In this document: in pieces, positions 24,098 to 54,000 of the stretch
Layout: every line of letters starts with the position of its first letter
Position numbering within the stretch: position 1 is the first letter of the stretch
The notes under the pieces: model-generated
What the model was told of the DNA's origin: nothing
What the model saw: only the letters and a program-made list of their open reading frames with translations
Databases searched by the model: none
Made by a program: the position numbers and the translations under genes
Origin: a bacterium
GTDB taxonomy: Bacteria; Oederibacteriota; JAJYGY01; DAIDJD01
Assembly (NCBI GenBank): GCA_035485275.1
Contig: DATHOE010000034.1
Location: forward strand, 93,677-157,676
DNA length: 64,000 bases
Reading direction: 5' to 3'

Positions 24098-25603
24098 ATG
24101 AGAAGCCGCCGCATCTTGTCGGCCTATGGCAGCAGTTTGCTGGGGCTATTCTCCGGCATCCTGACCAATTTTTGGTTCCTCAAGGTCCTGACATCCCAAC
24201 TGTCGAAAAACGAATTCGGCCTTTACGCCTATGTACTGCAAATCACCGCCTATTTCGGTTTTTTGCTGCTCGGCATCGATTTCGCCGCCTCTCGCGACAT
24301 AGCCAAGAATCTGGCGCTGGGGCGCCAGGATGAGGCCTTCAGCGCCTACCAGGTGCTGGGACGTTTCAACAGGATCGCCGGGGCCGTATGCGCCGCCGGA
24401 ACCGTCATCCTGGCCCTGGTGATCCCCCGCCTGGGCTTGCGCGGCTGGGACCAGCCTTCGGTGCTTGTCGGTTTGACCCTGTTGGTGGGGTTCTCCCAGG
24501 TCCTCGGTTTTTTCCAGGTCACGCCCTCCGCGGCGCTCATCGGATCGCAACAGCAATGGATCGTCAACCTCCTGACCACGCTCAGGAGCGTCGCAACCAC
24601 ACTGCTGGCCTACGCGCTGCTTGAGGGCGGGGCCGGGATCTACTGCATCGCGATCGCGGGCGTGGTGACCGCGGCCCTGCACCTTTTGTGTTCCGACATT
24701 CTTTGCCGCAAATATTGCCCGTGGACCGTGGACCCGTCCCGGAAGACGCTGTCGCGCGAGAAGTTCAAGGAGCTGTTCCAGTTCGGGGGCCTGAACCATC
24801 TCGGCTATATGGCCTGGACCGTGGAGTCCACCAGCGACGTCTTCCTGCTGGGCGCCTACGGCGGGCCCGAGGCCGTAGCGATATACGTGCTTTGGTGGCG
24901 CTTTCCGTCCATGCTCATCAGCTTTTGCACCAGGCTGAGCGACGCTGCCTTTCCGACCTGGGTCGAAAGCAGCACCGATCCCGGAAACTCCTCCGCCCGT
25001 CTTTTGGAAAAGGTGGGTATGCTCAGCCTCGGGCTCGGCACCTTGGCCCTTCTCGGGACCGGCCTGTGGCTTCCGAATTTCGTGCGCCTGTGGCTCGGGC
25101 ACGACTATCTGGCCCTGCATCCGCGCTTTTTGGCCCTGGAGATGGGGGCCCTTGTGCTGGTGCGGGTGTTTGGGAACCTGTTCAGCATGTTCTGGCTCTC
25201 CCAGGGCAAGGTGCGCCTCACCACCGGTTTGAGCATCGTGCTCATGGTGACCAAACTGGGGCTGGGCATCGTCTTGACCCGCCTTTATGGCGTGGACGGC
25301 CTCCTGGGTGCCTCGATCATCAACGGCGTCGCCCAGTGCGCCGGCTTGGGCATACCCTTGTACCTGAAAAAGCACTTCAACGTTAAGACGCTGATTTCGG
25401 GCCTGGCGCTCACCGCAGGCGCGCTCCTGCTGGCGATTTGGATCGGCGGGGCCTTCATCCACGACGTTGGACCCTTTGGATTCGGGCTCGGCGTGGCCGC
25501 GACGGCCCTCTTTTGGGGTCTGGTGTGGACCGGGGCCGCCTGGAAGAGCGCGCTCAACAGCAATTTGCGGCAACTTAAGGTGTTCCGGTCCTGGCCCGCC
25601 TAA
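24098..25603 (+). CDS. wzx: Wzx-like oligosaccharide flippase (MOP/polysaccharide biosynthesis protein family)
   Basis: About 500 aa, 12+ TM helices, organisation typical of Wzx/PST family. Confidence 0.7.
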   Translation: MRSRRILSAYGSSLLGLFSGILTNFWFLKVLTSQLSKNEFGLYAYVLQITAYFGFLLLGIDFAASRDIAKNLALGRQDEAFSAYQVLGRFNRIAGAVCAAGTVILALVIPRLGLRGWDQPSVLVGLTLLVGFSQVLGFFQVTPSAALIGSQQQWIVNLLTTLRSVATTLLAYALLEGGAGIYCIAIAGVVTAALHLLCSDILCRKYCPWTVDPSRKTLSREKFKELFQFGGLNHLGYMAWTVESTSDVFLLGAYGGPEAVAIYVLWWRFPSMLISFCTRLSDAAFPTWVESSTDPGNSSARLLEKVGMLSLGLGTLALLGTGLWLPNFVRLWLGHDYLALHPRFLALEMGALVLVRVFGNLFSMFWLSQGKVRLTTGLSIVLMVTKLGLGIVLTRLYGVDGLLGASIINGVAQCAGLGIPLYLKKHFNVKTLISGLALTAGALLLAIWIGGAFIHDVGPFGFGLGVAATALFWGLVWTGAAWKSALNSNLRQLKVFRSWPA

Positions 25604-26918: not shown

Positions 26919-27982
26919 AGAAGGGTCCGCTGAATATCCTTTATCTGGGGGATTCCGCGCAGGGCACCACGTCCCTGCAACGGTGCATGGCGCTGCGCTC
27001 GCTCGGGCACCGGGTGACCATGGCGGACAGCGCTCCGCGGAGCATTGGGCTCCTCCATCGCGTCGATGACTGGCTGTACCGAAAGGGTTTTTCGGGGATG
27101 GGCCATCGCAGCCCGGCCACCAACCGGCAAATCCGACAGGAACTAGGGCGTAGGGTTTTCGACCTGCTTTGGATCGATAAGGGAATCTACATCACCCCCG
27201 AGACCATCGCCGCAGCCAAGGCCGCCAATCCCGGTCTGCTGGTTTTGGGCTATTCGCCGGACTACATGGCCGCGCGGCACAACAACAGCCGCTGGTTCAT
27301 CGCCCATTCCGCTTCGTACGACCTCTTCGTGACCACCAAATCTTATGCGGTGGAGTGGCACAAGGCGATCGGGACAAAAGACGTACTTTTTGTCGGCAAC
27401 GCCTACGACCCCGCGACGCACAGGCCGATGCGGATCGCCGCGGCGACGCGAAAGGCGCTGGGCGGGCCGGTTGGTTTCATCGGCTTTTATGAGGCGCCCC
27501 GCGCGGAGGCGGTCGCGTATCTGGGGGCGCACGGTGTTCCGACGAAGGTGTATTCCCCGGGATGGGACACCAGTTCGCCGGCCCCGGGGGTGACCGTCGT
27601 GGCGCGTCCCCTGTTCGGCGACGACTACGCGAAAGCAATCAACGCCTTCGACATCAACCTTTGCTTCCTTCGCGCCATGAACTTGGACGTGCAGACCCAG
27701 CGCAGCGTCGAAATTCCGGCTTGCGGGGCCTTCATGCTGGCCGAGCGGACGGCCGAGCACCAGGGACTTTTTAAAGAGGGTATCGAGGCGGATTTTTTCA
27801 GCAGCAAGGAAGAACTTCTGTCGAAATGCCGTTTCTATCTCGCGAATCCGGCAGTGAGGAAAAGGGTCGCCCTGGCCGGGTACCGGCGTTGCCTCCGTTC
27901 GGGTTACAGCAACCAGGCCAGGATGGAAAAGATGATTGAACACCTTTTGGGGTCCGTGCGGGGACGCGGGAAGGGAAGATGA
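26915..27982 (+). CDS. CgeB-like glycosyltransferase family protein
   Basis: C-terminal RSVEIPACGAFMLAERTAEHQGLFKEG...FFSSKEELLSKCRFYLANPAVRKRVALAGY resembles CgeB/GT1-like domain. Confidence 0.6.
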   Translation: MKKGPLNILYLGDSAQGTTSLQRCMALRSLGHRVTMADSAPRSIGLLHRVDDWLYRKGFSGMGHRSPATNRQIRQELGRRVFDLLWIDKGIYITPETIAAAKAANPGLLVLGYSPDYMAARHNNSRWFIAHSASYDLFVTTKSYAVEWHKAIGTKDVLFVGNAYDPATHRPMRIAAATRKALGGPVGFIGFYEAPRAEAVAYLGAHGVPTKVYSPGWDTSSPAPGVTVVARPLFGDDYAKAINAFDINLCFLRAMNLDVQTQRSVEIPACGAFMLAERTAEHQGLFKEGIEADFFSSKEELLSKCRFYLANPAVRKRVALAGYRRCLRSGYSNQARMEKMIEHLLGSVRGRGKGR

Positions 27983-29415
27983 GCTCGGCCACTTTGATGG
28001 GGGACACGCCCTTATTGCAGGTTCCCGCCGATACCCGGTATTTTAGGCGGATAGGATTCGGCCTCATCGCGGCCTGGGTCCTGGTTCTTTTGGCCGTCCT
28101 ATTCGTGAGCAATTGGTGCACGGAGAAAAACCTCCTGGCCGCGTTGGTTCTGAGTCTCGGTTTGAGCCCTATGGCGGCGTGGTTTTTGGAGGGCCAGGGC
28201 GGCGATTTCCCGATTTTCCAGTTGCATACACTATACTACGGCATGAATTACGGGCTTGCGTCGCTGTACGCCAATCCTCAATTGACCGCGGTGTCGGAAT
28301 CGGACCGCGTTGTCGCGCTGCAGGCGACCGCCATGGGCTTGGGGGTGATGCTGTGGGCGTATTACTTCATCGGGGTACGGTTGTTCCGGCGGATACGGCC
28401 GCTGAAGGTGACAACTCCCGTGCCCTATGAAAATTTTCTCAGATGGGCCTGGGTCATAGCCTTCATCAGCGCCATAAAAAAAATCACCGGAGTGGATTTT
28501 GGGCCCCTGGAGATGCTGGTTTACCAGCCTCTCCTGTACCTGGGGTGGATGGCCAACACTTTTATCCTTGTCGACTTGCTTGTCTACAAAAGGGGGAAGA
28601 AACTGCGGTCGATGTTTTTTTTCGGTTTGTTGATGTTCTTTCAGTTTTTTTCCGCCATCGGATCCGGCCTATTCTCCAACATCCTGATCCTCGTTTTTTT
28701 CATGATCTTCGTTTATTTGAACGTGAAAAAGCGGGTACTCATGAAGGTCATCGTCTTGAGCGTGGTGTTTTTCGTCATTTTGGAGCCGCTGAAAAACGAA
28801 TTTCGCCTGCTGACTTGGGGGCCCAAGAATACGTCCGTCAGCGCGGTTCAAAGGGCGTCGATTTTCGCGGAATTGCTCGTGTCGAAGTACAGCGCCTATT
28901 CTTCCGTCGCATCCACCTCCGTGAACCAGGTCGTCAGCAGGATAGACGACGCCTATACGTTGGCGCGAGTGATGCAGCAGACACCCGACTATGTCCCTTA
29001 TTCGAACGGCAGCACTTACTTATCCTTGCTCACCATTTGGATTCCACGCGCTATTTGGCCCGATAAACCACAAGGGAACATTGGAAATACGTGGGCCCAC
29101 TGGTACGGCCTATTGGACCAGGACGATTTCACGACCTCCTACAACCTGCCTTGGATCGTGGAGTTTTATATCAACTTCGGCTGGGCGGGGATCATCGTCG
29201 GCATGTTTTTGTCCGGAATCCTGTTTGCCTGGCTTGCCGCATTTTTTTGTTTCCCCGGGGCGAGCGCGTTGGAGTATTCGGCGGCGGTTCCCCTGCTTCT
29301 TAACCTTTGGTACGCCGAATCGAATTTCGCCCTGGTTGCCGGCGGGCTCATCATAGGGCTGGTCGTGCTCCGGGTGTACATGAAAGCCATGCCCTACCTC
29401 GCTTTCAAGTTTTGA
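27979..29415 (+). CDS. polytopic membrane protein, putative Wzy-type polymerase / O-antigen ligase-like
   Basis: 478 aa, about 10-12 TM helices with large loop; lower GC than neighbours; position between GT genes. Confidence 0.55.
   Translation: MSSATLMGDTPLLQVPADTRYFRRIGFGLIAAWVLVLLAVLFVSNWCTEKNLLAALVLSLGLSPMAAWFLEGQGGDFPIFQLHTLYYGMNYGLASLYANPQLTAVSESDRVVALQATAMGLGVMLWAYYFIGVRLFRRIRPLKVTTPVPYENFLRWAWVIAFISAIKKITGVDFGPLEMLVYQPLLYLGWMANTFILVDLLVYKRGKKLRSMFFFGLLMFFQFFSAIGSGLFSNILILVFFMIFVYLNVKKRVLMKVIVLSVVFFVILEPLKNEFRLLTWGPKNTSVSAVQRASIFAELLVSKYSAYSSVASTSVNQVVSRIDDAYTLARVMQQTPDYVPYSNGSTYLSLLTIWIPRAIWPDKPQGNIGNTWAHWYGLLDQDDFTTSYNLPWIVEFYINFGWAGIIVGMFLSGILFAWLAAFFCFPGASALEYSAAVPLLLNLWYAESNFALVAGGLIIGLVVLRVYMKAMPYLAFKF
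28476..28483 (+). repeat. A8 homopolymeric tract inside Wzy-like gene
   Basis: gccatAAAAAAAAtcacc read directly (encodes AIKKIT). Confidence 0.85.
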
Positions 29416-31438: not shown

Positions 31439-32659
31439 TCAGGAGGGCCAGGGTTTCCCGGCCAGCGCGACGCTCAAGCGGGCCGCCTGGGCTATGCCCT
31501 TGGCCGACGCGGCTGTGCTGTAGAGTTTGATGCGTTCGGATGCTTCGGTCGAGTAACGACGCCTGCGGCTTTTGTCGAGGAAAAGGTTCCGGAGGTGTTC
31601 GGCGAGTTTTTTCGCGTCCCCCGCGGCGAATAGTTCCCCTGTTTTTCCCGGCGACACCAAGTCCTGGGCGCAGCCGCATTGCTCGGTGGCGATGACGGGC
31701 AGCCCCATCTGCATGGCTTCGTTCACCACCAGACCCCAGGTCTCAAAGAGCGATGGCAGGACGAAAAGGTCCGCGGCCGCGAAGTAGTCGGCTAGGCGGC
31801 TTTGGTTCACGAAACCCGCCAGGACCGCCCGGCCCGGGGCCAGCCGCCGCGCCTGGGCCCGCAAATCGGGGGCCAGGGGCCCGTCGCCGACGAAAACGGC
31901 CTTCAGTTGGGGTAAATCCGGCAGGAGCGCCAGGGCGTCCAGCAGGGTTTGGGGCGCCTTCCGGTCGATGAGCTTTCCGGAAAAGAGGGCCACCACGTCC
32001 TTGGGGCCGATGCCCAAGGCGCTCCTCAGCGCGGCGGAGCGGGGGCGCCGATTGAAAAGGGCGGAGTCCACGGAATAGGGCGAAAAAACGAGGCGGTCTG
32101 GATCCACGCCGAGCCCGGAAAGATGGGTTCTTGCCCCCTTGCCGATCACCGCGAACGCGTCCACGGACGAATAAATCCGTTTCAAGATCCGGTTTCTCGC
32201 CCAGGATTTCAACGCATAGGCGGCCTTTCCCGGCCCGGAGGAGGCGTCCGCGCCGGGGGAGGGCCCGAATTCCCCACGCATCACCACACCCAGGCCCAGC
32301 CTGTGCGCGGCCCACAGCGTCTGCCATTCAAAGGGCCGCATGTAACCCGGCACCAGCACGCACTGGAAGCCGCCCCGCAGCAGCAAGTCCAGGGGGTGCC
32401 TCAGGCGCATCTGCCAGCGCCGCGTGGGGTCCCTGTCGCGGGACAGAAAGACGCTGGAGTAGCCTTCCAAAAGCGGCACGTCCCAGGTTACGCCGCGGCC
32501 GAAATCCGGGTCCTTCCCGTCGCGCAGGCTGGAGTCGCTGAGGTAGAAAACCGTCGCGTCGATGTCGCGTTCACGGCCAAGCTGCCGCCATACCGGGGCG
32601 AAATACTGAATAGGATGGGTTTGGAATATGGCGAGCTTGATCCGCAAGTTTGCCCTCAC
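31439..32659 (-). CDS. glycosyltransferase family 4 (GT-B)
   Basis: FVLPSLFETWGLVVNEAMQMGLPVIATEQCGCAQDLV motif; probable GTG start at about 32659 (GAAAGG RBS), overlapping upstream stop. Confidence 0.8.
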   Translation of the reverse strand: MRANLRIKLAIFQTHPIQYFAPVWRQLGRERDIDATVFYLSDSSLRDGKDPDFGRGVTWDVPLLEGYSSVFLSRDRDPTRRWQMRLRHPLDLLLRGGFQCVLVPGYMRPFEWQTLWAAHRLGLGVVMRGEFGPSPGADASSGPGKAAYALKSWARNRILKRIYSSVDAFAVIGKGARTHLSGLGVDPDRLVFSPYSVDSALFNRRPRSAALRSALGIGPKDVVALFSGKLIDRKAPQTLLDALALLPDLPQLKAVFVGDGPLAPDLRAQARRLAPGRAVLAGFVNQSRLADYFAAADLFVLPSLFETWGLVVNEAMQMGLPVIATEQCGCAQDLVSPGKTGELFAAGDAKKLAEHLRNLFLDKSRRRRYSTEASERIKLYSTAASAKGIAQAARLSVALAGKPWPS

Positions 32660-34401
32660 GAACCTTTCACGCTGAGGAAATTCCCGAGGCAAAGCGCGTC
32701 GATGTCGTTGCGCAAGTAGCAGGCGACCGCCTGCCGGGGAGTGTCCACCACGGGCTCATTCTCGTTGAAACTCGTGTTGAGGACTACGGGTGTCCCGCTT
32801 AAGCGTCCGAAACGCTCGATCAATGCGTAGTACCGCGGGTTCAGTTCGCTGGTCACCGTCTGCAGGCGTCCGGTGGAGTCCTCGTGGGTCACCGCGGCCA
32901 GCGCCCCGCGTTTCGCTTCCCGGATCCGGACGACATGCATCATGAAGGGGCTGGAAACGTCCTGCTCAAAATATTCGTGCACGGATTCGGCAAGGATGCT
33001 GGGGGCGAAAGGACGGAAGCCTTCCCGGCGCTTGATACGCCGGTTGATGGTGTCCTTCATGCCCGGCCATCCTGGATGCGCCAGGATGGACCGGTTCCCC
33101 AAAGCCCGCGGTCCCCATTCGCTGCGCCCCTGGTACCAGCCCACGATCTTGCCCTGGTTCAGCAGGCCGGCGACCGAGTCGAATAGGGCGTCGTCGTCCA
33201 GGCGTTTGTAGGCCAGGCCCCCCTCACGCAGCGCCGCTTCGATTTCATTTTCCGGGTATTCCGGGCCGAGGTAGGCCTGCATTTGGGCCGGGACCCTGGG
33301 ATTTCCGAGCACCTGGTGCCAGACATGGTAGGCGGCGCCGACGGCGGTGCCGTCGTCGGAGGCCGCGCATTGGATATAGGTCCGGCGGAAGGGGGTGTCC
33401 CGCAGTATCCGGGCGTTGCAGACGCCGTTGAGGGCGCAGCCGCCGGCGGTCACCAGGGCGTCTACCGGAACCCGGCCCGCGAGCCATCCGAGGCTCTGCA
33501 GCACGACCTCTTCAAAACGGGTTTGGCAGGAACGGGCCAGGTCCATCTCGCGCTGGGTGATCGGGTCGCCGCGGCGCCGGGGCGCACCCAATTCCGCCAC
33601 CAAGCGGTCGGTATAAAGGCGCGACAACACCGGGTTTGCGCCGGCGACGGTCGTCGGCATGCGGCCGTCGGTGCCGAGGGCGCTGATATAGCTTTGATCG
33701 AGCTTGAAATCGCCGTTCTTGCCGGCATCTAGGACTTTCCGCATGAACGGCGCGTAGACGTCCTGGCCGTAGGCCGACAGGCCCATGACCTTGTATTCCT
33801 CGCCCACCTGGTCGAATCCGATGAACTGGCAGATTGCGGTGTAAAAGATCCCCAATGAATGGGGCAAGTGCACCCGCTTGAGCACATCGATTTTCGTCCC
33901 ATGGCAATGGGCGTACATCGCCGATACGAAGTCCCCGGAACCGTCGTAGGAAAAACCCGCCGCCTCCTCGAATGGGCTGCAATAGAAGGCGCTGGCGATA
34001 TGGGCCAGATGGTGTTCAACGGGCACCACTTTGAAGCGGCAGGAGCTTTCAGGCTCCCCCAGGGCCTCCGCGACCATGCTTTTCAAGCTGAGGGTGTTTT
34101 TCCTGCGCGCCAGGTTCGCCCGCACATAGTCGAGCGCGCCGGCGGGATGCCCAAGCAGATAGGCCAGCTTGGCGGCCCCATTCGCGCTGTTGTCGTGGCC
34201 GAGGGCGATATAGTCGATGTCCTTGAGCTTGAGCCCCTCCATATCCAATACGCGCCGTAGGGCATGGGCAGGGAAGCAGGAGGCGTGTTTGATCCTTTCG
34301 CCCAGGCGCTCCTCCGCGATGGCGGCCGTGAGGCGTCCGTCCCGCACCAGACAGGCGGACGAATCGAGGTGGAAGAGGTTCAATCCGACGATCGCGGGCA
34401 T
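32656..34401 (-). CDS. carbamoyltransferase (NodU/CmcH family)
   Basis: MPAIVGLNLFHLDSSACLVRDGRLTAAIAEERLGERIKH N-terminal signature and HHLAHIASAF; about 581 aa; start at ATG 34401. Confidence 0.85.
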   Translation of the reverse strand: MPAIVGLNLFHLDSSACLVRDGRLTAAIAEERLGERIKHASCFPAHALRRVLDMEGLKLKDIDYIALGHDNSANGAAKLAYLLGHPAGALDYVRANLARRKNTLSLKSMVAEALGEPESSCRFKVVPVEHHLAHIASAFYCSPFEEAAGFSYDGSGDFVSAMYAHCHGTKIDVLKRVHLPHSLGIFYTAICQFIGFDQVGEEYKVMGLSAYGQDVYAPFMRKVLDAGKNGDFKLDQSYISALGTDGRMPTTVAGANPVLSRLYTDRLVAELGAPRRRGDPITQREMDLARSCQTRFEEVVLQSLGWLAGRVPVDALVTAGGCALNGVCNARILRDTPFRRTYIQCAASDDGTAVGAAYHVWHQVLGNPRVPAQMQAYLGPEYPENEIEAALREGGLAYKRLDDDALFDSVAGLLNQGKIVGWYQGRSEWGPRALGNRSILAHPGWPGMKDTINRRIKRREGFRPFAPSILAESVHEYFEQDVSSPFMMHVVRIREAKRGALAAVTHEDSTGRLQTVTSELNPRYYALIERFGRLSGTPVVLNTSFNENEPVVDTPRQAVACYLRNDIDALCLGNFLSVKGS

Positions 34402-34739
34402 AGTTACTCTTTTTTTGGAGGCCGGGCCCCCAGGCATGGGCGGGGCGTCGCGATAAAAACAGGGGATCCGGGGCTCCGGAAACGAGCGGAGTTCACCCGT
34501 AAACTCGGCGGGGAGCCTGAAAAACAGCCAAACCGCGGGCAGCCGGAATTGGGAGGGTCTCTATGGCGTGTATTTTCGGTTATGGGCCATTTCAATGTCA
34601 ACACCGACTCTGGGCCCTCGCTGGAGGGTCCCCTGGGAAGCCCTTTTTGCCATAGCGCCAGGCGCCTTTGGAAGCTAGGCGTTTTTGTTTCAAGCGCGGA
34701 TGAAACGGACTAGAAGCCCCGACCCATCTTGCGGAGTGC

Positions 34740-35894
34740 TCACGCAGCCGGCCCTCTAACGGGGGCTGCCGGCCGCCTTTGTGGCATAGAAAGCATGCAT
34801 ACGAACATCAGGAGGATCGTGGGAAAATTCTGGAGGATGATCGTTCTGTCATAGTCGCTGAACCAGCCCAAGCGATACAGGGCTATTTGGGCGTAACACA
34901 ATCCCGTCAGGGCCAGCGCCAGCGCCGCATGCCATTTGGAAGCGATGCCGTCGCGGAACAATAGCGCCAAAGGGAAGATGAAGCTAAGCATGTCATATTC
35001 CCCGTGGTAGACCACCAGCAGCGTCCAAATGACGAAAATCGAGAAAGTCGCGAGGTCGTCGAGATCGCCCCTCCGCACCCGCCGTACCATCGCGACAAAG
35101 GTGCCCGCCTGAAAGAGCAAGACAAGCGCTTTGGACTGCCATAGCCGGGGGTAGAGCGATAAAACGGCGTTGACGTCGGTGTCCCCCAATGCCGAGGCAT
35201 TTCTCAAGGTGTGAACATATTCCGTCACGAGGTTCCAGGGCGTCGTGGCGAGCCAGGTACTTGAAAATACGATGAGAATCCCATGGAGGGTCAAAGCAAG
35301 ACCCACCGGGGCATATAGCCCCAGGCACGCCATCCATAAAAGTCCGGGCAATGTGAAGGTCCATTTCAGCAGCGAGAACTGGAGCGCGATGGCGGCCCAT
35401 AACGGATGTTTTTTCAGCGCCAGCTCGTATCCCATCAAAAATAAGCCCAAGGCGAACAGGGTTTGCTGCCCATCCCCAATGTCCTCACGCCAGGGCCTCG
35501 AGGCGTAGACGAGCAATGAGAAAACCAGGAATTTGTCCAAGGGAATGCGGTTCAGCCAGCGTCTTCGGATCATCCAAAAAATGTATACGGTCATGCATAA
35601 TTTAGAGAAGAGCCAGATCATTTTTGCGGGCGTCCAATCCAAGGCCGCCAGCGGCCACAGACAAACTAGGCTGGCCGGCGAGTAATAGTGGAGACCGTCA
35701 CCCCCCCATTCCGTTTCGATCTTCAACCACGCCGGCCCAGAATGGTACGGATCTATGTGCTGGAGCAATAGACGGGATTCACACCAGGCTGAATCGTGGC
35801 TGAAAGCTACGGCATTCTTGACGTTCCAAACCGTTACGGCCAGAAAAAGAACCGCGAGCAAGGCCCGCGTTGGGGTCCAATGAAATCGAAGCAA
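34740..35894 (-). CDS. polytopic membrane protein, putative GT-C-type glycosyltransferase (DUF2029/GT87-like)
   Basis: 384 aa, about 10 TM helices; assignment from hydrophobicity pattern and context only. Confidence 0.45.
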   Translation of the reverse strand: MLRFHWTPTRALLAVLFLAVTVWNVKNAVAFSHDSAWCESRLLLQHIDPYHSGPAWLKIETEWGGDGLHYYSPASLVCLWPLAALDWTPAKMIWLFSKLCMTVYIFWMIRRRWLNRIPLDKFLVFSLLVYASRPWREDIGDGQQTLFALGLFLMGYELALKKHPLWAAIALQFSLLKWTFTLPGLLWMACLGLYAPVGLALTLHGILIVFSSTWLATTPWNLVTEYVHTLRNASALGDTDVNAVLSLYPRLWQSKALVLLFQAGTFVAMVRRVRRGDLDDLATFSIFVIWTLLVVYHGEYDMLSFIFPLALLFRDGIASKWHAALALALTGLCYAQIALYRLGWFSDYDRTIILQNFPTILLMFVCMLSMPQRRPAAPVRGPAA

Positions 35895-36093: not shown

Positions 36094-37170
36094 CTAAGTT
36101 TGTGTTAGGAGCTTCCCGGACCTGTCCCCCCAGAAATGCTTGAGCCAGAGCCTAGCCGGTCGATCGAAATAGGTGTCTAGGTATGCACATAAAACGAGCA
36201 AACCGGCAATGAACCCGATGCCAGACCACGGAGCCCAACTCTCGACTGGAACATTGAGGTGTTTGAAGAGCATGTGGACAAAAAATTCGCACGTAAGATG
36301 AAGCACATACACCGCATAGCTGGTCGCGCCCAAAAAGGCGTAGATCCGGGATTCCCGACCCGGCGCGGAATCCGCAGCTGCCCCGAGGTAGATCAGCGTC
36401 GGCGAAAGGATCAGAACGAAAAGCAGCTCATAGGTGCAACGGAATGCCTTGCTGGGTTCCAGGCCCAAAAATAAGAGCAGGCCGGCCAGCAGAAGTGGGG
36501 GATAGATTTTCAGCCCGGACCGCGGCAGCCGTTGCAGAAGAAGCCCCGCGCAAAAAGAAAAACATACGCGGGAGGCCGCTATCCATACGTCGTTCAGGCT
36601 CCAGGAGTCTCCCGCGATCATTGAGCCCGTTCTCCGCTGCGCGATGTACAACCCCATCGCACCCACTCCGGCTAGCGCCAGAAGCAGGCGCCGGTTTAGT
36701 CTCCGCCAAAAGGCGCCGTAAAAAGCGTTTGCAATCAATTCCCAAAAGAGGGTCCAGGCCACAAGCATTAGTGGATAAAACTCAGGAGAAATGTTGAGTG
36801 AAAATGGCGACGGCAGCATGATCAGGCCGAGAAGCAGAGACGCAACCATGCCTGTGATGCTAATGTGCAGCGGGTTCCCCATGAAAAAGTTTCCGATCCA
36901 GGGGATCAATCCGAGCAGCGTGCCCAGCAGGTAAAGCGGATAGAAACGGATCAAACGCAGGCGCATGAATTCCGCCCAGGTCATTGTTTGAGCCAGGCGC
37001 CCCGAATAAGCTTCGGACACCACAAAACCGCTGAGCGCGAAAAAGAAATCCACCGCCAAAGAGCCTTCCGGAAAATTGAAAGCGCCGAAAAATGTTCCGC
37101 CGTGGACTACTATAATCGCGATGGCCGCCACGCCGCGCATACCATCCAGGGTTAGGTAACGCTTTTTCAT
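36094..37170 (-). CDS. acyltransferase family 3 membrane O-acyltransferase
   Basis: YLTLDGMRGVAAIAIIVVHG...DFFFALSGFVVSEAY signature. Confidence 0.8.
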   Translation of the reverse strand: MKKRYLTLDGMRGVAAIAIIVVHGGTFFGAFNFPEGSLAVDFFFALSGFVVSEAYSGRLAQTMTWAEFMRLRLIRFYPLYLLGTLLGLIPWIGNFFMGNPLHISITGMVASLLLGLIMLPSPFSLNISPEFYPLMLVAWTLFWELIANAFYGAFWRRLNRRLLLALAGVGAMGLYIAQRRTGSMIAGDSWSLNDVWIAASRVCFSFCAGLLLQRLPRSGLKIYPPLLLAGLLLFLGLEPSKAFRCTYELLFVLILSPTLIYLGAAADSAPGRESRIYAFLGATSYAVYVLHLTCEFFVHMLFKHLNVPVESWAPWSGIGFIAGLLVLCAYLDTYFDRPARLWLKHFWGDRSGKLLTQT

Positions 37171-37430: not shown

Positions 37431-38549
37431 ATGGCCATGGCCAGCGAGGTTCATAAACGGCGTTTTTTGACCTTGGACGGATTACGCGGGCTAGGCGCGC
37501 TACTCATCATGGTCTTCCATTTTGGTTCGTACGGAATTTCTCCGGTGCCCATGTTCTGCAAGGGCTACCTCGCGGTCGATCTTTTTTTCATTTTAAGTGG
37601 AGTGGTGCTCGCTGAGGCCTATTCGGCACGCCTGGCCGCGGGTTTGTCCCTGGCGGAGTTCCTGAAAATACGCTGGATTCGTCTCTATCCCTTTTACGCG
37701 CTGGCCTTGGTTTCTTCCGTAGCGATGCTTTTATTGTACTTTTTGGCAAAATCCTCAAACATGGATTTTATCCACTGGGCGCCAACAAGGTTTGTGGCCG
37801 GGTTCACTCCCGGCAGCTTTTTGGTCGCGTTTTCTTTCTCGGCCTTCATGGTCCCGGCCCCCATCGCCGGAGCGCTATTTCCATTCGTGGTACAGGCCTG
37901 GTCCTTGTTTTACGAGCTCTTGGTGAACCTGGGATGGGCGCTGACGCGGGCAGGGCTCGGGCGCTTTCGGCTTGGGATCGTAATAGCCATCGCGGCCTGC
38001 GGATTGTGCATGTTCGGACACAACGATGGCATCGCCGCCGGGGGTGAATGGACTTGCTCGGACCTCGCGACGGGATGCTGCCGCGTCTCTTTTTCCTTCG
38101 GCGTCGGACTCATGATTCACGACATCGACAAGGCCCGCGTGCCCCGGGTGAACCCTTGGATCATTTTTTTGGTCGTCGTAGCCTTGCTTGCTGCGAATCC
38201 GCCGGAGGCCTGGTGGGGTCTGTTCGATTTGGCGGCCGTATGGGTCTTTTTGCCGGCCTGCGTTCTGCTCGCTACGGTGAGTGAGCCCAGGCACGCCTGG
38301 GAGGCACAGACGTTCACGTTCATGGGCAACGCCAGTTACGGTATTTATATGATCCACGGTCGTTTTCTTTCGGTCCTACATTGGGCCGTGGATAGGTTCG
38401 CCCTCAGCCCTTATCTTGGCGAGGTGTTGGTGACGGTGGGGGTTGTATTTTTGGCGCACTGGCTGGAGCGGGTTTGGGATAGGCCTGCCCGTTCGTGGCT
38501 GGCCGGGTTTATCGGCGGGGAATCCGCACCCAAACTAAAAAAACGCTGA
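37431..38549 (+). CDS. acyltransferase family 3 membrane O-acyltransferase
   Basis: FLTLDGLRGLGALLIMVFHF...DLFFILSGVVLAEAY signature. Confidence 0.8.
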   Translation: MAMASEVHKRRFLTLDGLRGLGALLIMVFHFGSYGISPVPMFCKGYLAVDLFFILSGVVLAEAYSARLAAGLSLAEFLKIRWIRLYPFYALALVSSVAMLLLYFLAKSSNMDFIHWAPTRFVAGFTPGSFLVAFSFSAFMVPAPIAGALFPFVVQAWSLFYELLVNLGWALTRAGLGRFRLGIVIAIAACGLCMFGHNDGIAAGGEWTCSDLATGCCRVSFSFGVGLMIHDIDKARVPRVNPWIIFLVVVALLAANPPEAWWGLFDLAAVWVFLPACVLLATVSEPRHAWEAQTFTFMGNASYGIYMIHGRFLSVLHWAVDRFALSPYLGEVLVTVGVVFLAHWLERVWDRPARSWLAGFIGGESAPKLKKR

Positions 38550-38740: not shown

Positions 38741-40330
38741 ATGCTGTTCTTGGACAAGCAAATGAACTTTGGTTGCGGAAAAATCGCCTTTGTGATGGCT
38801 GCCATCCTGGCCCTGGGTTTCGGCTGGGTATGCATGGTTTTGGCCAAGCGTTTACGTTGGGTTGACCGTCCCGGACACAGGAAGAGTCAGAAGCGGTCGG
38901 TGCCCTATCTGGGGGGGCTGGCTCTTTTTCTCGCCCTTGGCACGACCCTGTTTGTCCTTTATCAGGTGGGTTATTTTGTTGCGGAGCCGGGTTTCAGCAT
39001 TCCCTCTCTCCTAGCGTGTTTATCCCCGGCTTTGGCCGCCTGCGGATTGGGGCTCTGGGACGATATTTATGAAATGCCGGCCAGATACAAATTCGCCTTC
39101 CAAGGCCTCATCGCGCTCGGGTTCAGCCAGTTCGCGTACCGATTTTCCGTTTTCCACATTCCCGGTTTTTCGCCCCTAATTTTGGACCCTGAAGTAGCCG
39201 TCCTGGTCACCACGTTTTTCATGGTCGCGGTTGTAAACGGATTCAACATGATCGACGGCTCGGACGCCCTCTGCCTCGGTTCAAGCACGGTGACCTTGGC
39301 GCTTGTGTCCGCCGTGGCTGAGCTTGACGGACAGCCCCAATTCGCGATATTGGGCCTGGCGACCTGCGGCGCCTGCCTGGGTTTGCTGTACTGGAATCGG
39401 CCCCCCGCACGCATTTATATCGGGGACGCCGGCAGCCTGGGCTTGGGCTTCCTTGTGGCGGGTCTTGTGGTCGCACTGGGAGCGGGCGCCCCCGGACATT
39501 TCCTGCTGGGGCCGAAGGGTCTTCCGCGGGAGGCTTTCGCCTATCAGATCGTGGTGGCGTCACTATTGGTCGGCATTCCGGCCCTGGAGGTGCTGTTGAC
39601 GGTGGCGCGGCGGGGCCTGCAGGGAAGGAGCTTGGGCCGCGGCGACCAGGGACACCTGCACCATCGATTGGCCCAGCGCGGATGGCGGCCGGCCTCGATC
39701 GCCGGCGGAGCCATGGGGGTGAATCTCCTGTGTGGAAGCATAGCGTTGGCTTTTTTGTCCGGTGAAAAAGGCATGGCCGTGATGTGCGCGTTCATGCTGG
39801 CGATACTGTTGGGGTTGGGGCTGCAGTATTTGGACTATTTCCGGATGCTTCGATCGGATTGGCTGGACAAACGGCGCCCCCATTATGCGGTGGCGACCCA
39901 CTTTGCCGCCATGCAGGCCTCAAAACTGAAGTTGGCCAGCCATCGTGAGGAGGTTTTGGCCCTGGTGAAGCAGGCGTGCCACGAATTTGGGGCCCATGAA
40001 TGTCGCGTCAGCGTGCGGGACTCGTCGGACAGGCGATGGATTTGGAAATGGTCCGAACCGGCACCCGCGCAGGCGGGCCCCCGGGTGAAGGACAGGGTGC
40101 GCATCGCGGACACGCGCAACCATGCGTCCTGGACGATGGAAAACGACGACAGAGAACCGGACTTGAACATGAATCTTCGCGTGATCATGACCGAATTCAT
40201 GCGCGACGCGCTTGAACGTTTGGTTGAACTCATGGCGGGCCAGGAGAACGTCGTTCCAGAACGGGATGCCGGAAAGACGGACACACTGGACCTGGTTCTG
40301 AGTATCAAGGGTTTCAAAAACAGGCTCTGA
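38741..40330 (+). CDS. undecaprenyl-phosphate sugar-1-phosphate transferase, MraY/WecA (GT4-PNPT) family, with about 190-aa C-terminal extension
   Basis: LGLWDDIYE (DD motif), VNGFNMIDGSDAL, IYIGDAGSLGLGF; typical family length about 340-370 aa, this is 529 aa. Confidence 0.8.
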   Translation: MLFLDKQMNFGCGKIAFVMAAILALGFGWVCMVLAKRLRWVDRPGHRKSQKRSVPYLGGLALFLALGTTLFVLYQVGYFVAEPGFSIPSLLACLSPALAACGLGLWDDIYEMPARYKFAFQGLIALGFSQFAYRFSVFHIPGFSPLILDPEVAVLVTTFFMVAVVNGFNMIDGSDALCLGSSTVTLALVSAVAELDGQPQFAILGLATCGACLGLLYWNRPPARIYIGDAGSLGLGFLVAGLVVALGAGAPGHFLLGPKGLPREAFAYQIVVASLLVGIPALEVLLTVARRGLQGRSLGRGDQGHLHHRLAQRGWRPASIAGGAMGVNLLCGSIALAFLSGEKGMAVMCAFMLAILLGLGLQYLDYFRMLRSDWLDKRRPHYAVATHFAAMQASKLKLASHREEVLALVKQACHEFGAHECRVSVRDSSDRRWIWKWSEPAPAQAGPRVKDRVRIADTRNHASWTMENDDREPDLNMNLRVIMTEFMRDALERLVELMAGQENVVPERDAGKTDTLDLVLSIKGFKNRL

Positions 40331-40370
40331 GCCTGCTCAGGAATGCCTTCGTGAGACGCTGAGCTGCGGG

Positions 40371-41108
40371 TCAGCCTTTGGAAGTCGCCCCGCCTATTGG
40401 TTTGGATGCCTGTGCGACAACATTGCAATAGGAGTCGTATTTTTTTGGAAGCATGCGGTCCAGCGCTAGGCCGCTCAGATTCATCGATGGAATAAATAGG
40501 TAAGGCGTCCCGAAACGGAGATACCGCACAAGGCACATGGTCAGGTGTTGCCAGGACGCGAGAAAACTCGATGTGGTCTTGTCGGTGACGACGTTATCGA
40601 AGCCGTGTTTCCGCAACAATAACGCGAAGCCGGCCGCCGTATATCGGGCAAGGTCCTCCGGGCCGTCCTCTTCCCAAGTGAACGGGGTTACGATGAGGAG
40701 GCGTCCGCCCGGCCTAAGCACCCTTTTGAATTCGTCGAGCACTTGGTCTATATTTGGAACGTACATCATCACCTCGGTACTGAACACTCCGTCAAAGCTT
40801 CCGTCCGCGAAGGGCAGGGTTTTACCGTCGTAGAAGGCGTCAATGTCGCTGCGTTTGTCGTAGAAATCCATCTGCAATTCCAGGCCTACGTAGGTCCTCG
40901 CGTTATTGAACAAGGATCGATAGGGTTTGGTTCCACAGCCGAAGTCCAAAATATCGCCGTGAAAGCCCTCGGCGCGAGCGGCGACGGCGCGGTAGATCCC
41001 GCGGTGGATGATGTAGCTGGAGTTCACGAAAATTCCAACGGGTCCTGGCAGAAACTTGTGCTTTTGCACCACCGTTTCTCTGAATTTTTTCCTGAGCTTT
41101 TCTAGCAT
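40371..41108 (-). CDS. class I SAM-dependent methyltransferase
   Basis: ILDFGCGTKPY (motif I), FDGVFSTEVMMYVPN, LRPGGRLLI; start taken at internal ATG (residue 46 of ORF to 41243), uncertain. Confidence 0.65.
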   Translation of the reverse strand: MLEKLRKKFRETVVQKHKFLPGPVGIFVNSSYIIHRGIYRAVAARAEGFHGDILDFGCGTKPYRSLFNNARTYVGLELQMDFYDKRSDIDAFYDGKTLPFADGSFDGVFSTEVMMYVPNIDQVLDEFKRVLRPGGRLLIVTPFTWEEDGPEDLARYTAAGFALLLRKHGFDNVVTDKTTSSFLASWQHLTMCLVRYLRFGTPYLFIPSMNLSGLALDRMLPKKYDSYCNVVAQASKPIGGATSKG

Positions 41109-47108: not shown

Positions 47109-48491
47109 TTAAGCCGGCCACCTTTTTGATCCACTCGAAGTCAAAATTTTCCAAATGAACGCGGTGAGTAAAAACAAAAAAAGAGGATAGTAAATACCTG
47201 AGCCATAGAAATATGGCACCGGAATACCAATCATCTCAATGCAAATAACACATATCGTAAAATAAAATTTGAGTCTCTTGTCGGAAAGGCTCAACATATT
47301 CTTCAATACCCACGGCAGCAACGCGATGACCCAGAACAGTCTGATCATCCAGGTGAACGGTGCGCAAAAAAGCGTGATGAGTATTCCGAAGTAATAGAAA
47401 GTCAATGTGGGATCCAGGAAATCCGGAGATGTTCCACGTGCGAAAAAAAAAGTCAGAGCCCACAATAGCAGCGGGGTGAAAATCATAATTAATAGTCTGG
47501 AGATATGTAAACGCGATGCCATTTCTCGGGTGCCTGATCCGTTTGAGTTCTGGTCCATGAGCCCGCTGTCGTCATATATAACTCCATCGATGGTGTTTAT
47601 GGAGTCGGGCCAAGCCCGGGAATATATTTGGATTTCCCTGGAGCTTAACGACTGATTTTCACTCCCCAATTCTTCCGATTGGAAAATACGGCCCAAACGA
47701 TGCATGAAATAATCTTGGTTTACCGAAATGCCGTCCAAAGCGAGGCTGCTTCCAAAAAGCACGGCTACACCTAACAGGAATCCAACTAAAGTTGGACGCC
47801 AGCGCGTTAAGAATATTCCGGGCATGAACAAAAGGGTGTCCAGTTTTAGGAAGGTGGCCACCGCAAGGCAGGCCCCTAATGCGCAATGAGCCCAATTTTC
47901 TTTGAATCGACAGGCCAGAAAAAAACCCATGGTAATGACAAAAAATGTAATTCCGTCGATATTTGCTGCTTCGATCTGGGAGACTGTGGGGTAAAACCAA
48001 AAAGCGGTACCCAATACCGCGAACATCGGAAACAAAAATATGTCCAGCCACACGACATAGGTTGCCGCCGCAATCGACGCGACAATGCATGAAAAAATTA
48101 AAAGCGTCCAAATCAACTTGGCGCGGGCATACCTAAAATAAGTGAAAGGAACAAACAGTCTTGCCGTCAATGGGGGCAATAAAAAACCGCTGTTGGCGAA
48201 CGAGCTATAATCCCAGGTGCGGATGTCTTTCGCCATATTGTTGTCATAGGGAGAATATCCATCCCTCACGGAGAATCCGGTGCTATAGAAATCAAAAAAA
48301 TCACCTTGTGGGCCATGGGCGACTAGATGGCAGGTCCAGCCGGAAATCCAGATAAGTCCGCTCAAAAAATAGAGCATCATTAAGATTTTAAGTTTTCGTG
48401 GCGCTCTTTCCACTGATACTCCCTGTCGCGTATGTTTTTCCTTCCTTAGACCTTGGACCCAGTGCCGGATGCTCGGGTTGGCGTCACGCAT
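47109..48491 (-). CDS. polytopic membrane protein (lower-GC), putative GT-C/DUF2029-like or polymerase
   Basis: 460 aa, many TM helices, Phe/Trp/Tyr-rich; visibly AT-richer than flanking genes; start uncertain. Confidence 0.5.
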   Translation of the reverse strand: MRDANPSIRHWVQGLRKEKHTRQGVSVERAPRKLKILMMLYFLSGLIWISGWTCHLVAHGPQGDFFDFYSTGFSVRDGYSPYDNNMAKDIRTWDYSSFANSGFLLPPLTARLFVPFTYFRYARAKLIWTLLIFSCIVASIAAATYVVWLDIFLFPMFAVLGTAFWFYPTVSQIEAANIDGITFFVITMGFFLACRFKENWAHCALGACLAVATFLKLDTLLFMPGIFLTRWRPTLVGFLLGVAVLFGSSLALDGISVNQDYFMHRLGRIFQSEELGSENQSLSSREIQIYSRAWPDSINTIDGVIYDDSGLMDQNSNGSGTREMASRLHISRLLIMIFTPLLLWALTFFFARGTSPDFLDPTLTFYYFGILITLFCAPFTWMIRLFWVIALLPWVLKNMLSLSDKRLKFYFTICVICIEMIGIPVPYFYGSGIYYPLFLFLLTAFIWKILTSSGSKRWPA

Positions 48492-50608: not shown

Positions 50609-52114
50609 GTGGCCCAGCAGGCCCCGGTCACTGGCATGCGCGGCGCGGCGGTCCAGGGCGCGTTCTGGAGCATCGCCTTGGCCGTCGGCAATAAGGCCGT
50701 GACCACAGTGGGGCAGGTCGCGCTGGCTTGGTACCTTTTCCCGCGGGACATGGGGATCGTCGCGATGGCGGCCTCGGTGGTGGCGCTGGCCACTTTCTTC
50801 ACGGCCAGCGGCATCGACGACCTGCTGGTGCAGCGCCACGACTCCTATGAGCAGGACGCAACCCAGGTATTTTGGCTGTCCCTTTGTTTCAATGTCGTCG
50901 CGATGGCGGTCGCCGTGGCCTTGATCCCCTTCGCGGTCCGGCATTTCGGGGACGGGCGGGTGGGCCGCCTGATGCTCATCCAGGCGGCGAGTTGGCCGGT
51001 CTCCACCGTCACGCTGGTGCTCCGCCCGCAATTGGCCAATGTCCTGCGCTTCAAGGCCATCGCCGCGATCCGGCTCGGGGAGGGCGTGGTATTCACCGGC
51101 TGCGCGGTTTTTCTGGCCGCCCAGGGTTGGGGGCCCTACGCGCTCGTGTGGCCGACCCTCTTCTCGGCGATCTTTTCCGCCGCGGCTTTTTGGTGCCTGG
51201 CGGACAGGCCGCCCATGGGCTGGCCCAAGCCGGTTTCCTGGCCGGCCTACATCACCCCCGGCCTTCTGTTGATGGTGGGCAACTTCGTGGGGGTGATGGC
51301 GATCCAGATGCCGAACTTCATCATCGGAAGCCTGATGGACGCCCGCGGGACCGGCCTCTACGCCTGGGGCTACCTGGTGGCATCCCAGGCGATCTTCTTG
51401 CTGGTCCTCAATCTCCGCGGTTTGTTCACGCCGTTGTTTTCAAAACTGAAATCCGAGCCGGAGCGCCTGGCCAAGGCCACCGCGCAGGCCGCGTACGCCA
51501 TCACCGCGGTGGTCGCCCCGATATGCGTCCTGCAGGCGTTTTTCGCCCGTCCCCTGATCGAGACTTTTTTTCCGGCGCGCTGGACGGACGCGGTGCTGGT
51601 GGTGTACTGGCTGAGCCTGGGCTTTTGCGCCCAGCCGGTCGCCTTGATCACGCAGGCCGCCCTGATCGCGAAGGCCAGGTTCGGCCTGGCCTTGAGGCTG
51701 GCCCTGCTGCAGGCCGTCCTGGGGGCCCTGGGGGTGGCCTGGGGATGCCTCAAGAGCGGCATCGAGGGCGCGGCCGTGGGCGCGGCGGTTAGCGCCGTCC
51801 TATGCCTCCCGCTCAACCTGTGGATACTGCGCGGCGAGGTGGGCTGTTCCTGGCTCCGCTTGTTGGACGCGCCCAAAGCCATCCTATTCGGCGCCCTGGC
51901 TTTCCTTCCGTCGTGGGGGATCTTTTGGGCCTTCGGCGGCGCCTACCATTGGTGGTCCAACGCGGCGGAGGGCGTCGCCTACTGCGCGGTCCTGGCCCTG
52001 GTCTACAGGCTTTTCGACCCAGGCATGTTCGATGAACTCTCCGGATTGAGGTCCCTGATGCGGGGCGCCCCGGGGAAGCTTCCAGACCTTTCAAGGGGGG
52101 AGCAGTGCCCCTGA
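50609..52114 (+). CDS. Wzx-like flippase / polysaccharide biosynthesis protein (MOP family), second copy
   Basis: About 500 aa, 12-14 TM helices; GTG start 2 nt after gmd stop. Confidence 0.7.
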   Translation: MAQQAPVTGMRGAAVQGAFWSIALAVGNKAVTTVGQVALAWYLFPRDMGIVAMAASVVALATFFTASGIDDLLVQRHDSYEQDATQVFWLSLCFNVVAMAVAVALIPFAVRHFGDGRVGRLMLIQAASWPVSTVTLVLRPQLANVLRFKAIAAIRLGEGVVFTGCAVFLAAQGWGPYALVWPTLFSAIFSAAAFWCLADRPPMGWPKPVSWPAYITPGLLLMVGNFVGVMAIQMPNFIIGSLMDARGTGLYAWGYLVASQAIFLLVLNLRGLFTPLFSKLKSEPERLAKATAQAAYAITAVVAPICVLQAFFARPLIETFFPARWTDAVLVVYWLSLGFCAQPVALITQAALIAKARFGLALRLALLQAVLGALGVAWGCLKSGIEGAAVGAAVSAVLCLPLNLWILRGEVGCSWLRLLDAPKAILFGALAFLPSWGIFWAFGGAYHWWSNAAEGVAYCAVLALVYRLFDPGMFDELSGLRSLMRGAPGKLPDLSRGEQCP

Positions 52115-53410: not shown

Positions 53411-53983
53411 GTGAAGTCGGCCGTACGGAAATGGTGGGGACGTTGCGCCGCTTTGGCGGTGTGTCTCCTTTTGATGCAAGTGGCCTGGTTCGAGTATGTG
53501 TTCAGTTGCCCGGCCCCCGCGCTCCAGGCGGACATGCTGGCGGTCTATGGCGGGGATCCCCCGCGCTACGCCCTGGGCTGGGCCGTCGAGCGGCAGGGCC
53601 GCTTCAATTTTCTGGTCTTTTCCGACGCCCACGCCGATTTTTTGGCCCAGATGAAGGGCCAATATGGTCCGCCGCGCGCCGCGCGCTTGCTGCTCGAACC
53701 GCGGGCCCGGTCCACCGCCCAGAACGCGCGTTATGTGGCCGTGCTCATCCGCGACCATGGGTGCAGGAGCGTGCTGGTCATCACGTCCTGGTGGCACCTG
53801 CCCAGGGCTCTCTTTTTGACCCACCTTGCGTTGCTGGGCAGCGGCGTGGAAATTTCCGGCCTGGGCTCGGAGCTGCGTCCCTCGGTGGCGTGGAACGATC
53901 GCCGCGTGTGGGAGGAGCTGATCCGGTTCTGGGGCTCGTTGCTGACGTTCACGTCGGACACCCACAACACCTCTTTTCTTTAG
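53411..53983 (+). CDS. DUF218 (YdcF/ElyC/SanA-like) family protein
   Basis: STAQNARYVAVLIRDHGCRSVLVITSWWHLPRA pattern typical of DUF218. Confidence 0.6.
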   Translation: MKSAVRKWWGRCAALAVCLLLMQVAWFEYVFSCPAPALQADMLAVYGGDPPRYALGWAVERQGRFNFLVFSDAHADFLAQMKGQYGPPRAARLLLEPRARSTAQNARYVAVLIRDHGCRSVLVITSWWHLPRALFLTHLALLGSGVEISGLGSELRPSVAWNDRRVWEELIRFWGSLLTFTSDTHNTSFL

Positions 53984-54000
53984 CGTTCCAGGGACAGGGC

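Follow-up and report, generated by a model that had tools for sequence, protein, structure and literature searches.

Scarce undecaprenyl phosphate is committed among competing envelope pathways by priming transferases, and the post-translational control of these enzymes is only beginning to be understood. In Escherichia coli, WecA, the UDP-N-acetylglucosamine (UDP-GlcNAc):undecaprenyl-phosphate GlcNAc-1-phosphate transferase, primes the Wzx/Wzy pathway; a topology of 11 transmembrane (TM) helices with a cytoplasmic C-terminus was reportedly assigned to it by Lehrer and coworkers in 2007. MraY has 10 TM helices, a periplasmic C-terminus, and no cytoplasmic domain. For a monotopic priming phosphoglycosyl transferase (PGT), EpsZ of Myxococcus xanthus, activation by direct interaction with phosphorylated EpsW has been described (PMC12802240). 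Our literature search found no description of a C-terminal cytoplasmic domain on a polyprenyl-phosphate N-acetylhexosamine-1-phosphate transferase (PNPT). Here, we describe a gene that is predicted to encode such a protein. It is located at 38741..40330 on the forward strand of a 64,000-nucleotide stretch (the window) of contig DATHOE010000034.1, from a bacterium of the Oederibacteriota. The role of its product, like that of WecA, is predicted to be the priming of a Wzx/Wzy pathway.

The protein combines a predicted PNPT core with a long C-terminal tail. By our searches, the tail is a new, unannotated domain, possessing no Pfam or NCBIfam model and no detectable sequence relative among solved structures. 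We propose, tentatively, that it regulates the enzyme to which it is fused.

The transferase core and its gene

The following features were located in the core of the protein:

39014..39478, forward strand: Pfam Glycos_transf_4 (PF00953), residues 92-246, E 8e-31, 107.6 bits compared to a cut-off of 27
39059-39064, forward strand: DD motif, D107-D108, invariant columns in an alignment of 28 PNPTs
39236-39265, forward strand: NxxNxxDGxD motif (N166, N169, D172, G173, D175), invariant columns in the same alignment
39653..39664, forward strand: H305-H308, the HLHH motif of loop E, which is the last loop on the cytoplasmic side; H305, H307, and H308 invariant in the same alignment
39689..39838, forward strand: TM10 and TM11, residues ~317-366, with hydropathy peaks centred at 327-332 and 347-358

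The family hidden Markov model (HMM) PF00953, which represents the MraY-WecA superfamily, matched the protein above its curated cut-off, and the catalytic motifs were present; the first-pass annotation was right in calling the protein a WecA/MraY-family initiating transferase. HLHH is the counterpart of HIHH in WecA and HHH in MraY, and the loop E region (residues 285-316) was the best-conserved segment, with 66% mean pairwise identity among 17 homologs. The top NCBIfam match was WecA (TIGR02380) at 90.1 bits, compared to an equivalog cut-off of 326.05, with residues 23-317 aligned to positions 10-287 of a model of 346. MraY (TIGR00445) scored 54.4 bits compared to an equivalog cut-off of 192.05. 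Because both scores are far under their equivalog cut-offs, the protein is, by curated standards, a PNPT-superfamily enzyme and an orthologue of neither WecA nor MraY. The earlier label of WecA thus held at the level of the superfamily and failed at the level of the equivalog (90 compared to 326 bits). Judged on these family scores, the name should read PNPT without assigned sugar specificity, not WecA. The activity predicted from family and motifs is the transfer of a sugar-1-phosphate from a UDP-sugar to polyprenyl phosphate. The only sequence relatives of the protein in the PDB were MraY structures (4J72, 5JNQ, and 9ZNO; E 8e-7 to 1e-5), which aligned over the catalytic loops.

Kyte-Doolittle analysis gave 10 strong hydrophobic peaks, and an 11th, weakly hydrophobic helix at ~118-134 was read by eye. 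Taken together, residues 1-366 form a predicted PNPT/GT4 core that has 11 TM helices and the complete set of catalytic motifs. By hydropathy, two helices (~318-340 and ~344-366) follow the HLHH loop, and a basic stretch, RMLRSDWLDKRRPH, follows TM11, where its positive charge fits the positive-inside rule. Where PNPT structures have been solved (MraY, as in 4J72), the loops with DD, NxxNxxDGxD, and the His-rich motif all face the cytoplasm. Two TM helices after a cytoplasmic HLHH loop return the chain to the cytoplasm; motif position and TM parity thus place the tail on the active-site side, and attachment at TM10/TM11 would put it beside loop E. The first-pass annotation had ended the core near residue 340 and counted an extension of about 190 residues; since two further TM helices follow HLHH, this boundary was too early, and the soluble tail comprises residues 367-529 (163 residues).

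An insertion of approximately 18 residues (GAPGHFLLGPKGLPREAF...) was observed between TM8 and TM9 (residues ~249-267, nt 39485-39541). Every close homolog with the tail has this insertion, whereas the short PNPTs and the Verrucomicrobiota-type PNPTs (described below) of the same alignment lack it; it thus co-occurs with the tail. TM parity would place this insertion on the periplasmic side.

The gene is an uninterrupted open reading frame (ORF) of 529 codons plus a stop. Its product is identical to NCBI HTB22797.1, called by the Prokaryotic Genome Annotation Pipeline (PGAP) on a 298-kb contig and labelled "MAG TPA: MraY family glycosyltransferase [bacterium]"; the protein is therefore already deposited under a generic name, and its enzyme class is well known. 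In-frame ATG codons are found at 38741 (M1) and 38762 (M8), the latter giving a product of 522 residues. A copy from a Logan assembly (P0001) is 522 residues long and begins at M8, and the majority of homologs align from M8. The alignments indicate that the real start may be M8 (38762) instead of M1. No clear Shine-Dalgarno sequence or ribosome-binding site was seen ahead of M1 or M8, and a promoter and terminator scan gave no signal exceeding the shuffled expectation.

GC content by codon position kept the order GC3>GC1>GC2 in phase over the whole ORF, tail included, with GC1 level with GC3 at residues 241-320. The remaining two forward frames had 8 and 4 stops inside the tail region. The first-pass annotation had suggested looking for the same extension in homologs, and 28 long homologs from JGI, ENA, NCBI, and Logan were found to share the tail in frame (32-59% identity, 88-99% coverage). 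The long extension that it reported is thus real and conserved in frame in more than 28 homologs, and the ORF-splitting frameshift that it had held in reserve was found neither by codon phase nor by comparison with homologs. These data show that the ORF is intact, with a frameshift excluded. An antisense ORF (39883-40536, reverse strand, 217 residues) overlaps the tail-coding part and the 3' end of a convergent methyltransferase gene; it is probably spurious noise of GC-rich DNA.

Fold, conservation, and distribution of the tail

The tail was modelled with AlphaFold2 from a 15-sequence alignment (model mbea8f9538c4c). The mean predicted local distance difference test (pLDDT) score was 81 and the predicted TM-score (pTM) was 0.75, with core blocks at 85-96. 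The tail was divided by the model as follows:

39875..40240, forward strand: folded C-terminal domain, residues ~379-500, ~120 residues
40241..40282, forward strand: variable linker, predicted to be disordered, residues ~501-514, with pLDDT <50 at tail positions 137-146
40283..40327, forward strand: short basic C-terminal helix (..LVLSIKGFKNRL), modelled as helices at tail positions 150-153 and 156-162 with a low pLDDT of ~60

The predicted elements of the folded domain are helices at residues 380-398 and 402-416, antiparallel strands at 418-426, 432-438, 448-454, and 461-467, and a long helix at 473-500. In tail numbering, with H for helix and E for strand, the model reads H14-32, H36-50, E52-60, E66-72, E82-88, E95-101, and H107-134.

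Among the 17 homologs, mean pairwise identity was highest in loop E (0.66), followed by the core (0.48) and the tail fold (378-500; 0.42); the last 15 residues reached 0.25 and the linker (501-514) 0.11. At the level of these alignments, the tail is shown to be under purifying selection of nearly core strength. Conservation close to that of the core, followed by a linker that is not conserved, is in such comparisons what marks a tethered functional module. In a family alignment of 91 sequences, the conserved tail positions were R379, P380, H381, H387, Q392, K395, E404, Q411, C413, E415, G417, W437, D451, W464, E472, E478, R480, and R493, with values of 99% for E415, 91% for Q392, 90% for K395 and R379, and 89% for R480. 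In the terminal helix, the L525-equivalent was conserved in 79% and R528 in 78%. Both conserved tryptophans are located on strands, W437 on strand 2 and W464 on strand 4. Conserved polar residues of helices 1 and 2 have a spacing of i, i+4, i+7, i+11 (H381, Q392, and K395; E404, Q411, and E415), which would put the conserved residues on one face of each helix. Such faces suggest a candidate binding or contact surface, beyond the needs of a hydrophobic core alone.

When the model of the window tail was searched against the PDB with Foldseek, the only neighbours, and consistently so, were ligand-binding modules of PAS/GAF type: the top matches were LuxR-type ligand-binding domains (SdiA, CepR2, RhlR, CviR, and LasR), the GAF domains of KdpD, Nlh1, and Lcd1, and the PAS domain of DosP. 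E values were 0.025-0.5, probabilities were mostly 0.6-0.99 (at least 0.9 for the top matches), and TM-scores were 0.40-0.53. A Foldseek search of the viral BFVD gave no meaningful match. As a structural class, the modelled tail is probably a PAS/GAF-like alpha/beta sandwich; it belongs to none of the PAS or GAF families of Pfam.

Sequence searches with the tail yielded no credible match at E<=1 in NCBIfam 20.0 or in Pfam (models to 2025); PADLOC and PHROGs gave none either, and the tail profile had no relative among PDB sequences. The observation in the first-pass annotation that the extension carries no recognizable motif was borne out in all five of these collections, and the common known domain that it had allowed for did not appear in the Pfam or NCBIfam searches. 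Weak NCBIfam matches to the Rv0910 toxin (E 0.066) and SDR (E 0.14), as well as scattered Pfam DUF matches in single family members, were treated as noise. The sole PDB match of the tail profile, to the His-tag/N-terminus of a 2-oxoglutarate carboxylase (E 0.078), was considered spurious. No conserved RxxD or PilZ-type (cyclic di-GMP) motif was seen in the tail when alignments were read by eye.

We searched 1.84 billion representative proteins with HMMER, using a profile of 15 tails, to establish the distribution of the domain. There were 84 proteins matched at E<=1e-3 and 65 at <=1e-10. All full-length matches were 470-620 residues long and were matched at approximately residues 355-530. Twelve shorter matches were inspected, and all begin within the last PNPT TM helices or loop E; because they start inside PNPT segments, they are contig-edge fragments, not standalone proteins. 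By profile, the domain is shown to occur solely as the C-terminus of this PNPT clade, and the predicted architecture of PNPT plus tail is constant throughout a clade that comprises at least 84 clusters (50% identity). The first-pass annotation had considered such a fusion unusual; it is not a one-off, given these clusters and another group of PNPTs whose tail, unrelated in sequence, is predicted to be built alike. A word-indexed protein search with the tail alignment returned 3 proteins, all fragments or short entries, and the HMMER search was far more informative. No relatives turned up in scans of GTDB genomes, whether the query was the full protein or an alignment of 6 tail sequences.

In the full-length search, short PNPTs (310-380 residues) reached at most 39% identity over at most 65% of the query, with E values of 5e-28 or weaker. 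The most distant tail-bearing member, P0030, labelled "[Planctomycetota bacterium]" at NCBI, was matched at 32% identity with an E value of 5.9e-71. From these comparisons, the tail looks ancestral and fixed within the clade. When 47 PNPTs of at least 450 residues were sorted with local HMMs, 28 had the window-type tail, 9 had a Verrucomicrobiota-type tail (the P0034 group), and 10 had neither; those of the last set that were checked bear hydrophobic C-terminal extensions or a CoA_binding_3 domain.

The Verrucomicrobiota-type long PNPTs (P0034, P0039, P0043, P0046, P0047, P0053, P0058, P0070, and P0116) resemble the window protein in their core, TM hairpin, and cytoplasmic tail of ~150 residues. 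An independent model of their tail (pLDDT 77) gave H2-30, H34-48, E52-57, E60-65, E74-83, E86-94, and H100-126, so that the predicted order is H-H-E-E-E-E-H in both types. Foldseek returned the same neighbours as for the window tail, including the DosP PAS domain (TM-score 0.54-0.55, root-mean-square deviation 3.6 A). Seven of these tails were compared with Pfam and had no annotation, and no PAS, GAF, or LuxR autoinducer-binding match. The two types differ, however, in sequence: HMMER detects no relationship between them, their sets are mutually exclusive among the 47 long PNPTs, and several Verrucomicrobiota-type tails have Cys-rich insertions between strands. Comparison of the two tail families by hhalign was suggestive at most (E 0.006-0.018, probability <7%); we therefore do not claim their homology. 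The two models taken together hint that cytoplasmic accessory domains on polytopic PGTs are commoner than annotation indicates.

Two longer entries were considered as architecture clues and rejected. P0043 (779 residues) has no extra domain, and its addition of ~280 residues begins like a signal peptide. P0110 (809 residues) consists of HAMP, HisKA, and a truncated HATPase, a low-complexity stretch, and a PNPT with its own Met. By their sequences, both look like frameshift or read-through fusions, not true architectures.

Proposed roles of the tail and its locus

We propose that the gene product, as a predicted PNPT, primes a Wzx/Wzy-dependent polysaccharide that is exported by Wza/Wzc. TM11 would run straight into the cytoplasmic PAS/GAF-like domain of ~120 residues, followed by the flexible linker and the short basic helix. 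The domain would be located beside loop E, which bears HLHH and shapes the nucleotide-sugar pocket in solved PNPTs, and would act in cis as a regulatory module. A cytoplasmic signal, either a small molecule or a partner protein, would bind the tail and alter loop E and active-site access or the dimer state, and the altered state of the enzyme would gate, at the first committed step, how the shared pool of undecaprenyl phosphate is consumed. With the domain anchored next to loop E and the active site in the cytoplasm, modulation of the enzyme in cis would be the most likely role. We give a probability of roughly 0.45 to the proposal that the tail modulates the enzyme in cis (by active-site access, loop E conformation, or dimer state) upon encounter with a cytoplasmic ligand or partner, thereby gating the commitment of undecaprenyl phosphate. 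The first-pass annotation had suggested a fused regulatory or partner-binding domain; this suggestion fits the predicted cytoplasmic alpha/beta domain with its PAS/GAF-type neighbours, and the function that it named stays a proposal. It is doubtful that the tail is specifically a sensor of a small molecule (a metabolite, second messenger, or metal) fused in cis to gate the entry of undecaprenyl phosphate, with the Verrucomicrobiota-type tails as a diverged branch of the same module. To our knowledge, such a sensor tail would be the first built-in allosteric switch described for a PNPT.

Several results weigh against regulation in cis by a PAS/GAF-like module. Foldseek found nothing in the PDB at E<=1e-3, so the PAS/GAF assignment is tentative. 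TM-scores to the PAS/GAF neighbours were low (0.45-0.55 across the two models), the sheet of the tail has 4 strands compared to the canonical 5-6 of PAS/GAF, and none of 15 family members was matched by the Pfam PAS, GAF, or Autoind_bind HMMs at E<=10. A domain that serves purely in docking or dimerization would be expected to show purifying selection and a conserved polar surface just as much. Finally, no conserved neighbour gene was found for an obvious signal-producing enzyme.

The 64-kb window is one large polysaccharide locus, not a dcw cluster. The genes that bear on the pathway were as follows:

19950-20717, forward strand: Wza (Poly_export and SLBB)
20714-22684, forward strand: Wzc-like polysaccharide co-polymerase/bacterial tyrosine kinase (BY-kinase); Walker A, A', and B motifs are present, and a cluster of tyrosines, YSYTYGYKSQSYGD, is C-terminal
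24098-25603 and 50609-52114: two Wzx-type flippases
27979-29415: Wzy-like polymerase
34740-35894 and 47109-48491: two GT87-like membrane glycosyltransferases
15544-16650, 36094-37170, and 37431-38549: three acyltransferase-3 genes
32656-34437: NodU/CmcH-type carbamoyltransferase

The Wza and Wzc-like genes overlap by 4 nt; for the PNPT they represent pathway context and a candidate partner. The same locus also has many glycosyltransferases of families GT1, GT2, GT4, and GT9, as well as methyltransferase, deacetylase, DegT aminotransferase, and GDP-mannose dehydratase genes. The polysaccharide region as a whole (15544-53370) is ~38 kb. With its paired flippase and GT87-like genes, three acyltransferase-3 genes, and carbamoyltransferase, it suggests either that two loci have merged or that the polymer carries heavy decoration (O-acylation, carbamoylation, methylation). 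At its edge, 53431-55917 (forward strand) encodes an 828-residue protein with right-handed beta-helix/Pel9A-like repeats, which may be a cluster-associated polysaccharide lyase or depolymerase. Rfam found no RNA element in the whole window. Elsewhere in the window, an antisense ORF of 1493 residues (6962-11443, reverse strand) lies opposite Alternative-Complex-III-like genes (molybdopterin/Fe-S subunit, 6884-10033; NrfD-like, 10037-11485). Coordinate arithmetic puts its codons in exact register with those of both sense genes, so that a mirror-frame artefact, arising from codon bias against TTA, CTA, and TCA, is the most likely explanation.

Genes for PAS-HATPase proteins were observed near the long PNPT in some homolog loci. 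One of them, in the P0025/P0023 lineage, encodes a hybrid histidine kinase (PocR-PAS-HATPase-receiver) and is directly upstream on the same strand (7756-9792 in L003/L004; 3757-5793 in L007), and in L005 a cNMP-binding-PAS-HATPase protein is ~4 kb upstream on the opposite strand. These neighbours could be regulatory context; they are not conserved in other loci.

Instead of regulating the enzyme, the tail could be a docking scaffold that links the PNPT to the BY-kinase domain of Wzc, the next glycosyltransferase, or Wzx, and so organizes an initiation-export complex with no sensing; we regard this as possible, though improbable. Gene order speaks for it: in homolog loci the long PNPT often shares an operon-like arrangement with Wza and Wzc, and in four of them it directly adjoins Wza and/or Wzc: PNPT>Wza>Wzc in P0016 (3-nt gap) and P0009 (2-nt gap), PNPT>Wza in P0011 (4-nt overlap), and Wza>Wzc>PNPT>Wzx in P0027. 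In the P0025/P0023 lineage, Wza/Wzc are within ~1.5-5 kb of the long PNPT. The Wzc of the window cluster has its Walker motifs and Tyr cluster, and the conserved polar helical faces of the tail, along with its basic C-terminal helix, which is conserved and flexibly linked, resemble protein-interaction features. However, adjacency to Wza/Wzc is common for initiating transferases generally and is not specific to the tail, the PNPT gene and Wza/Wzc are 16 kb apart in the window, and P0030, the most distant tail-bearing member, has no Wza/Wzc neighbours on its short contig. Nor is the single Tyr of the tail, Y382, conserved; because it is Phe in 66% of homologs, the tail as a conserved BY-kinase substrate was rejected.

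A constitutive stabilizing or dimerizing module, with no signalling, is an unlikely description of the tail, even though several general properties would suit it. PAS/GAF-like domains with long N- and C-terminal helices are often dimerization modules, and PNPTs such as MraY are dimers. Helices 380-398 and 473-500 could make a helical bundle, and the large monotopic PGT WbaP dimerizes via a cytoplasmic element (PMC12802240). Most PNPTs, however, including close-scoring short homologs of 310-380 residues, work without such a domain, and the many conserved charged or polar residues (E415, Q392, K395, R379, and R480) exceed the needs of a hydrophobic dimer interface. That the extension is an artefact altogether, whether a sequencing frameshift, a read-through fusion, or a chance ORF, is effectively excluded. 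The DNA here is ~55-67% GC, with many long spurious ORFs in the window, and the related entries P0043 and P0110 do resemble fusion artefacts. Against this stand the in-phase codon-position GC and the 4-8 stops in the other forward frames over the tail, the recurrence of the same architecture, at 32-59% identity, in more than 28 sequences obtained independently from four sources, the protein-level conservation and confident predicted fold of the tail, and the identical protein called by PGAP on a 298-kb contig; moreover, no standalone tail was found that could have been fused.

The fusion of a conserved PAS/GAF-like module to a PNPT would offer a compact example, open to experiment, of how the first committed step is either regulated in cis or coupled to a complex. 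If the sensor proposal is correct, the tail would be a widespread, overlooked control point in Planctomycetota-Verrucomicrobiota-Chlamydiota (PVC)-like and other uncultured bacteria. Databases name the tail-bearing proteins merely "MraY family glycosyltransferase," and the tail would define a new domain family. Practical value is modest at present, as the carriers are uncultured environmental bacteria and the function is a proposal.

Comparison with known systems

Compared to E. coli WecA, the window protein belongs to the same superfamily, has WecA as its best-scoring named family, and shares the DD, NxxNxxDGxD, and HxHH motifs; its odd number of TM helices (11) would likewise give a cytoplasmic C-terminus. 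In contrast, WecA stops a few residues past TM11, whereas the window protein adds ~155 residues, and the clade of the window protein has the extra ~18-residue insertion between TM8 and TM9. The MraY structures (4J72, 5JNQ, and 9ZNO) have the same catalytic motifs; MraY differs in its substrate, UDP-N-acetylmuramoyl-pentapeptide (UDP-MurNAc-pentapeptide).

The modelled tail resembles PAS/GAF domains in that N- and C-terminal helices pack against an antiparallel sheet, and in being a cytoplasmic accessory domain on an effector. Its neighbour structures were CepR2 (5L10), SdiA (4Y15), RhlR (7R3I), CviR (3QP5), LasR (2UV0), the GAF domains of KdpD (4QPR and 4Y2F) and Nlh1 (4G3K), and the PAS domain of DosP (9CMF and 9BKV). 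However, these domains have five or six strands compared to the four of the tail, and sequence identity to the tail is 7-14%.

EpsZ and WbaP are monotopic PGTs of another superfamily, fold, and mechanism, and EpsW acts in trans as a receiver-domain protein in its own right, whereas the PAS/GAF-like domain described here is fused to the enzyme. Despite these differences, EpsZ-EpsW and WbaP, like the system proposed here, have a priming PGT of the Wzx/Wzy pathway that is controlled post-translationally via a cytoplasmic module affecting the active or dimeric state, and they are the closest functional analogy to the proposed mechanism of the tail.

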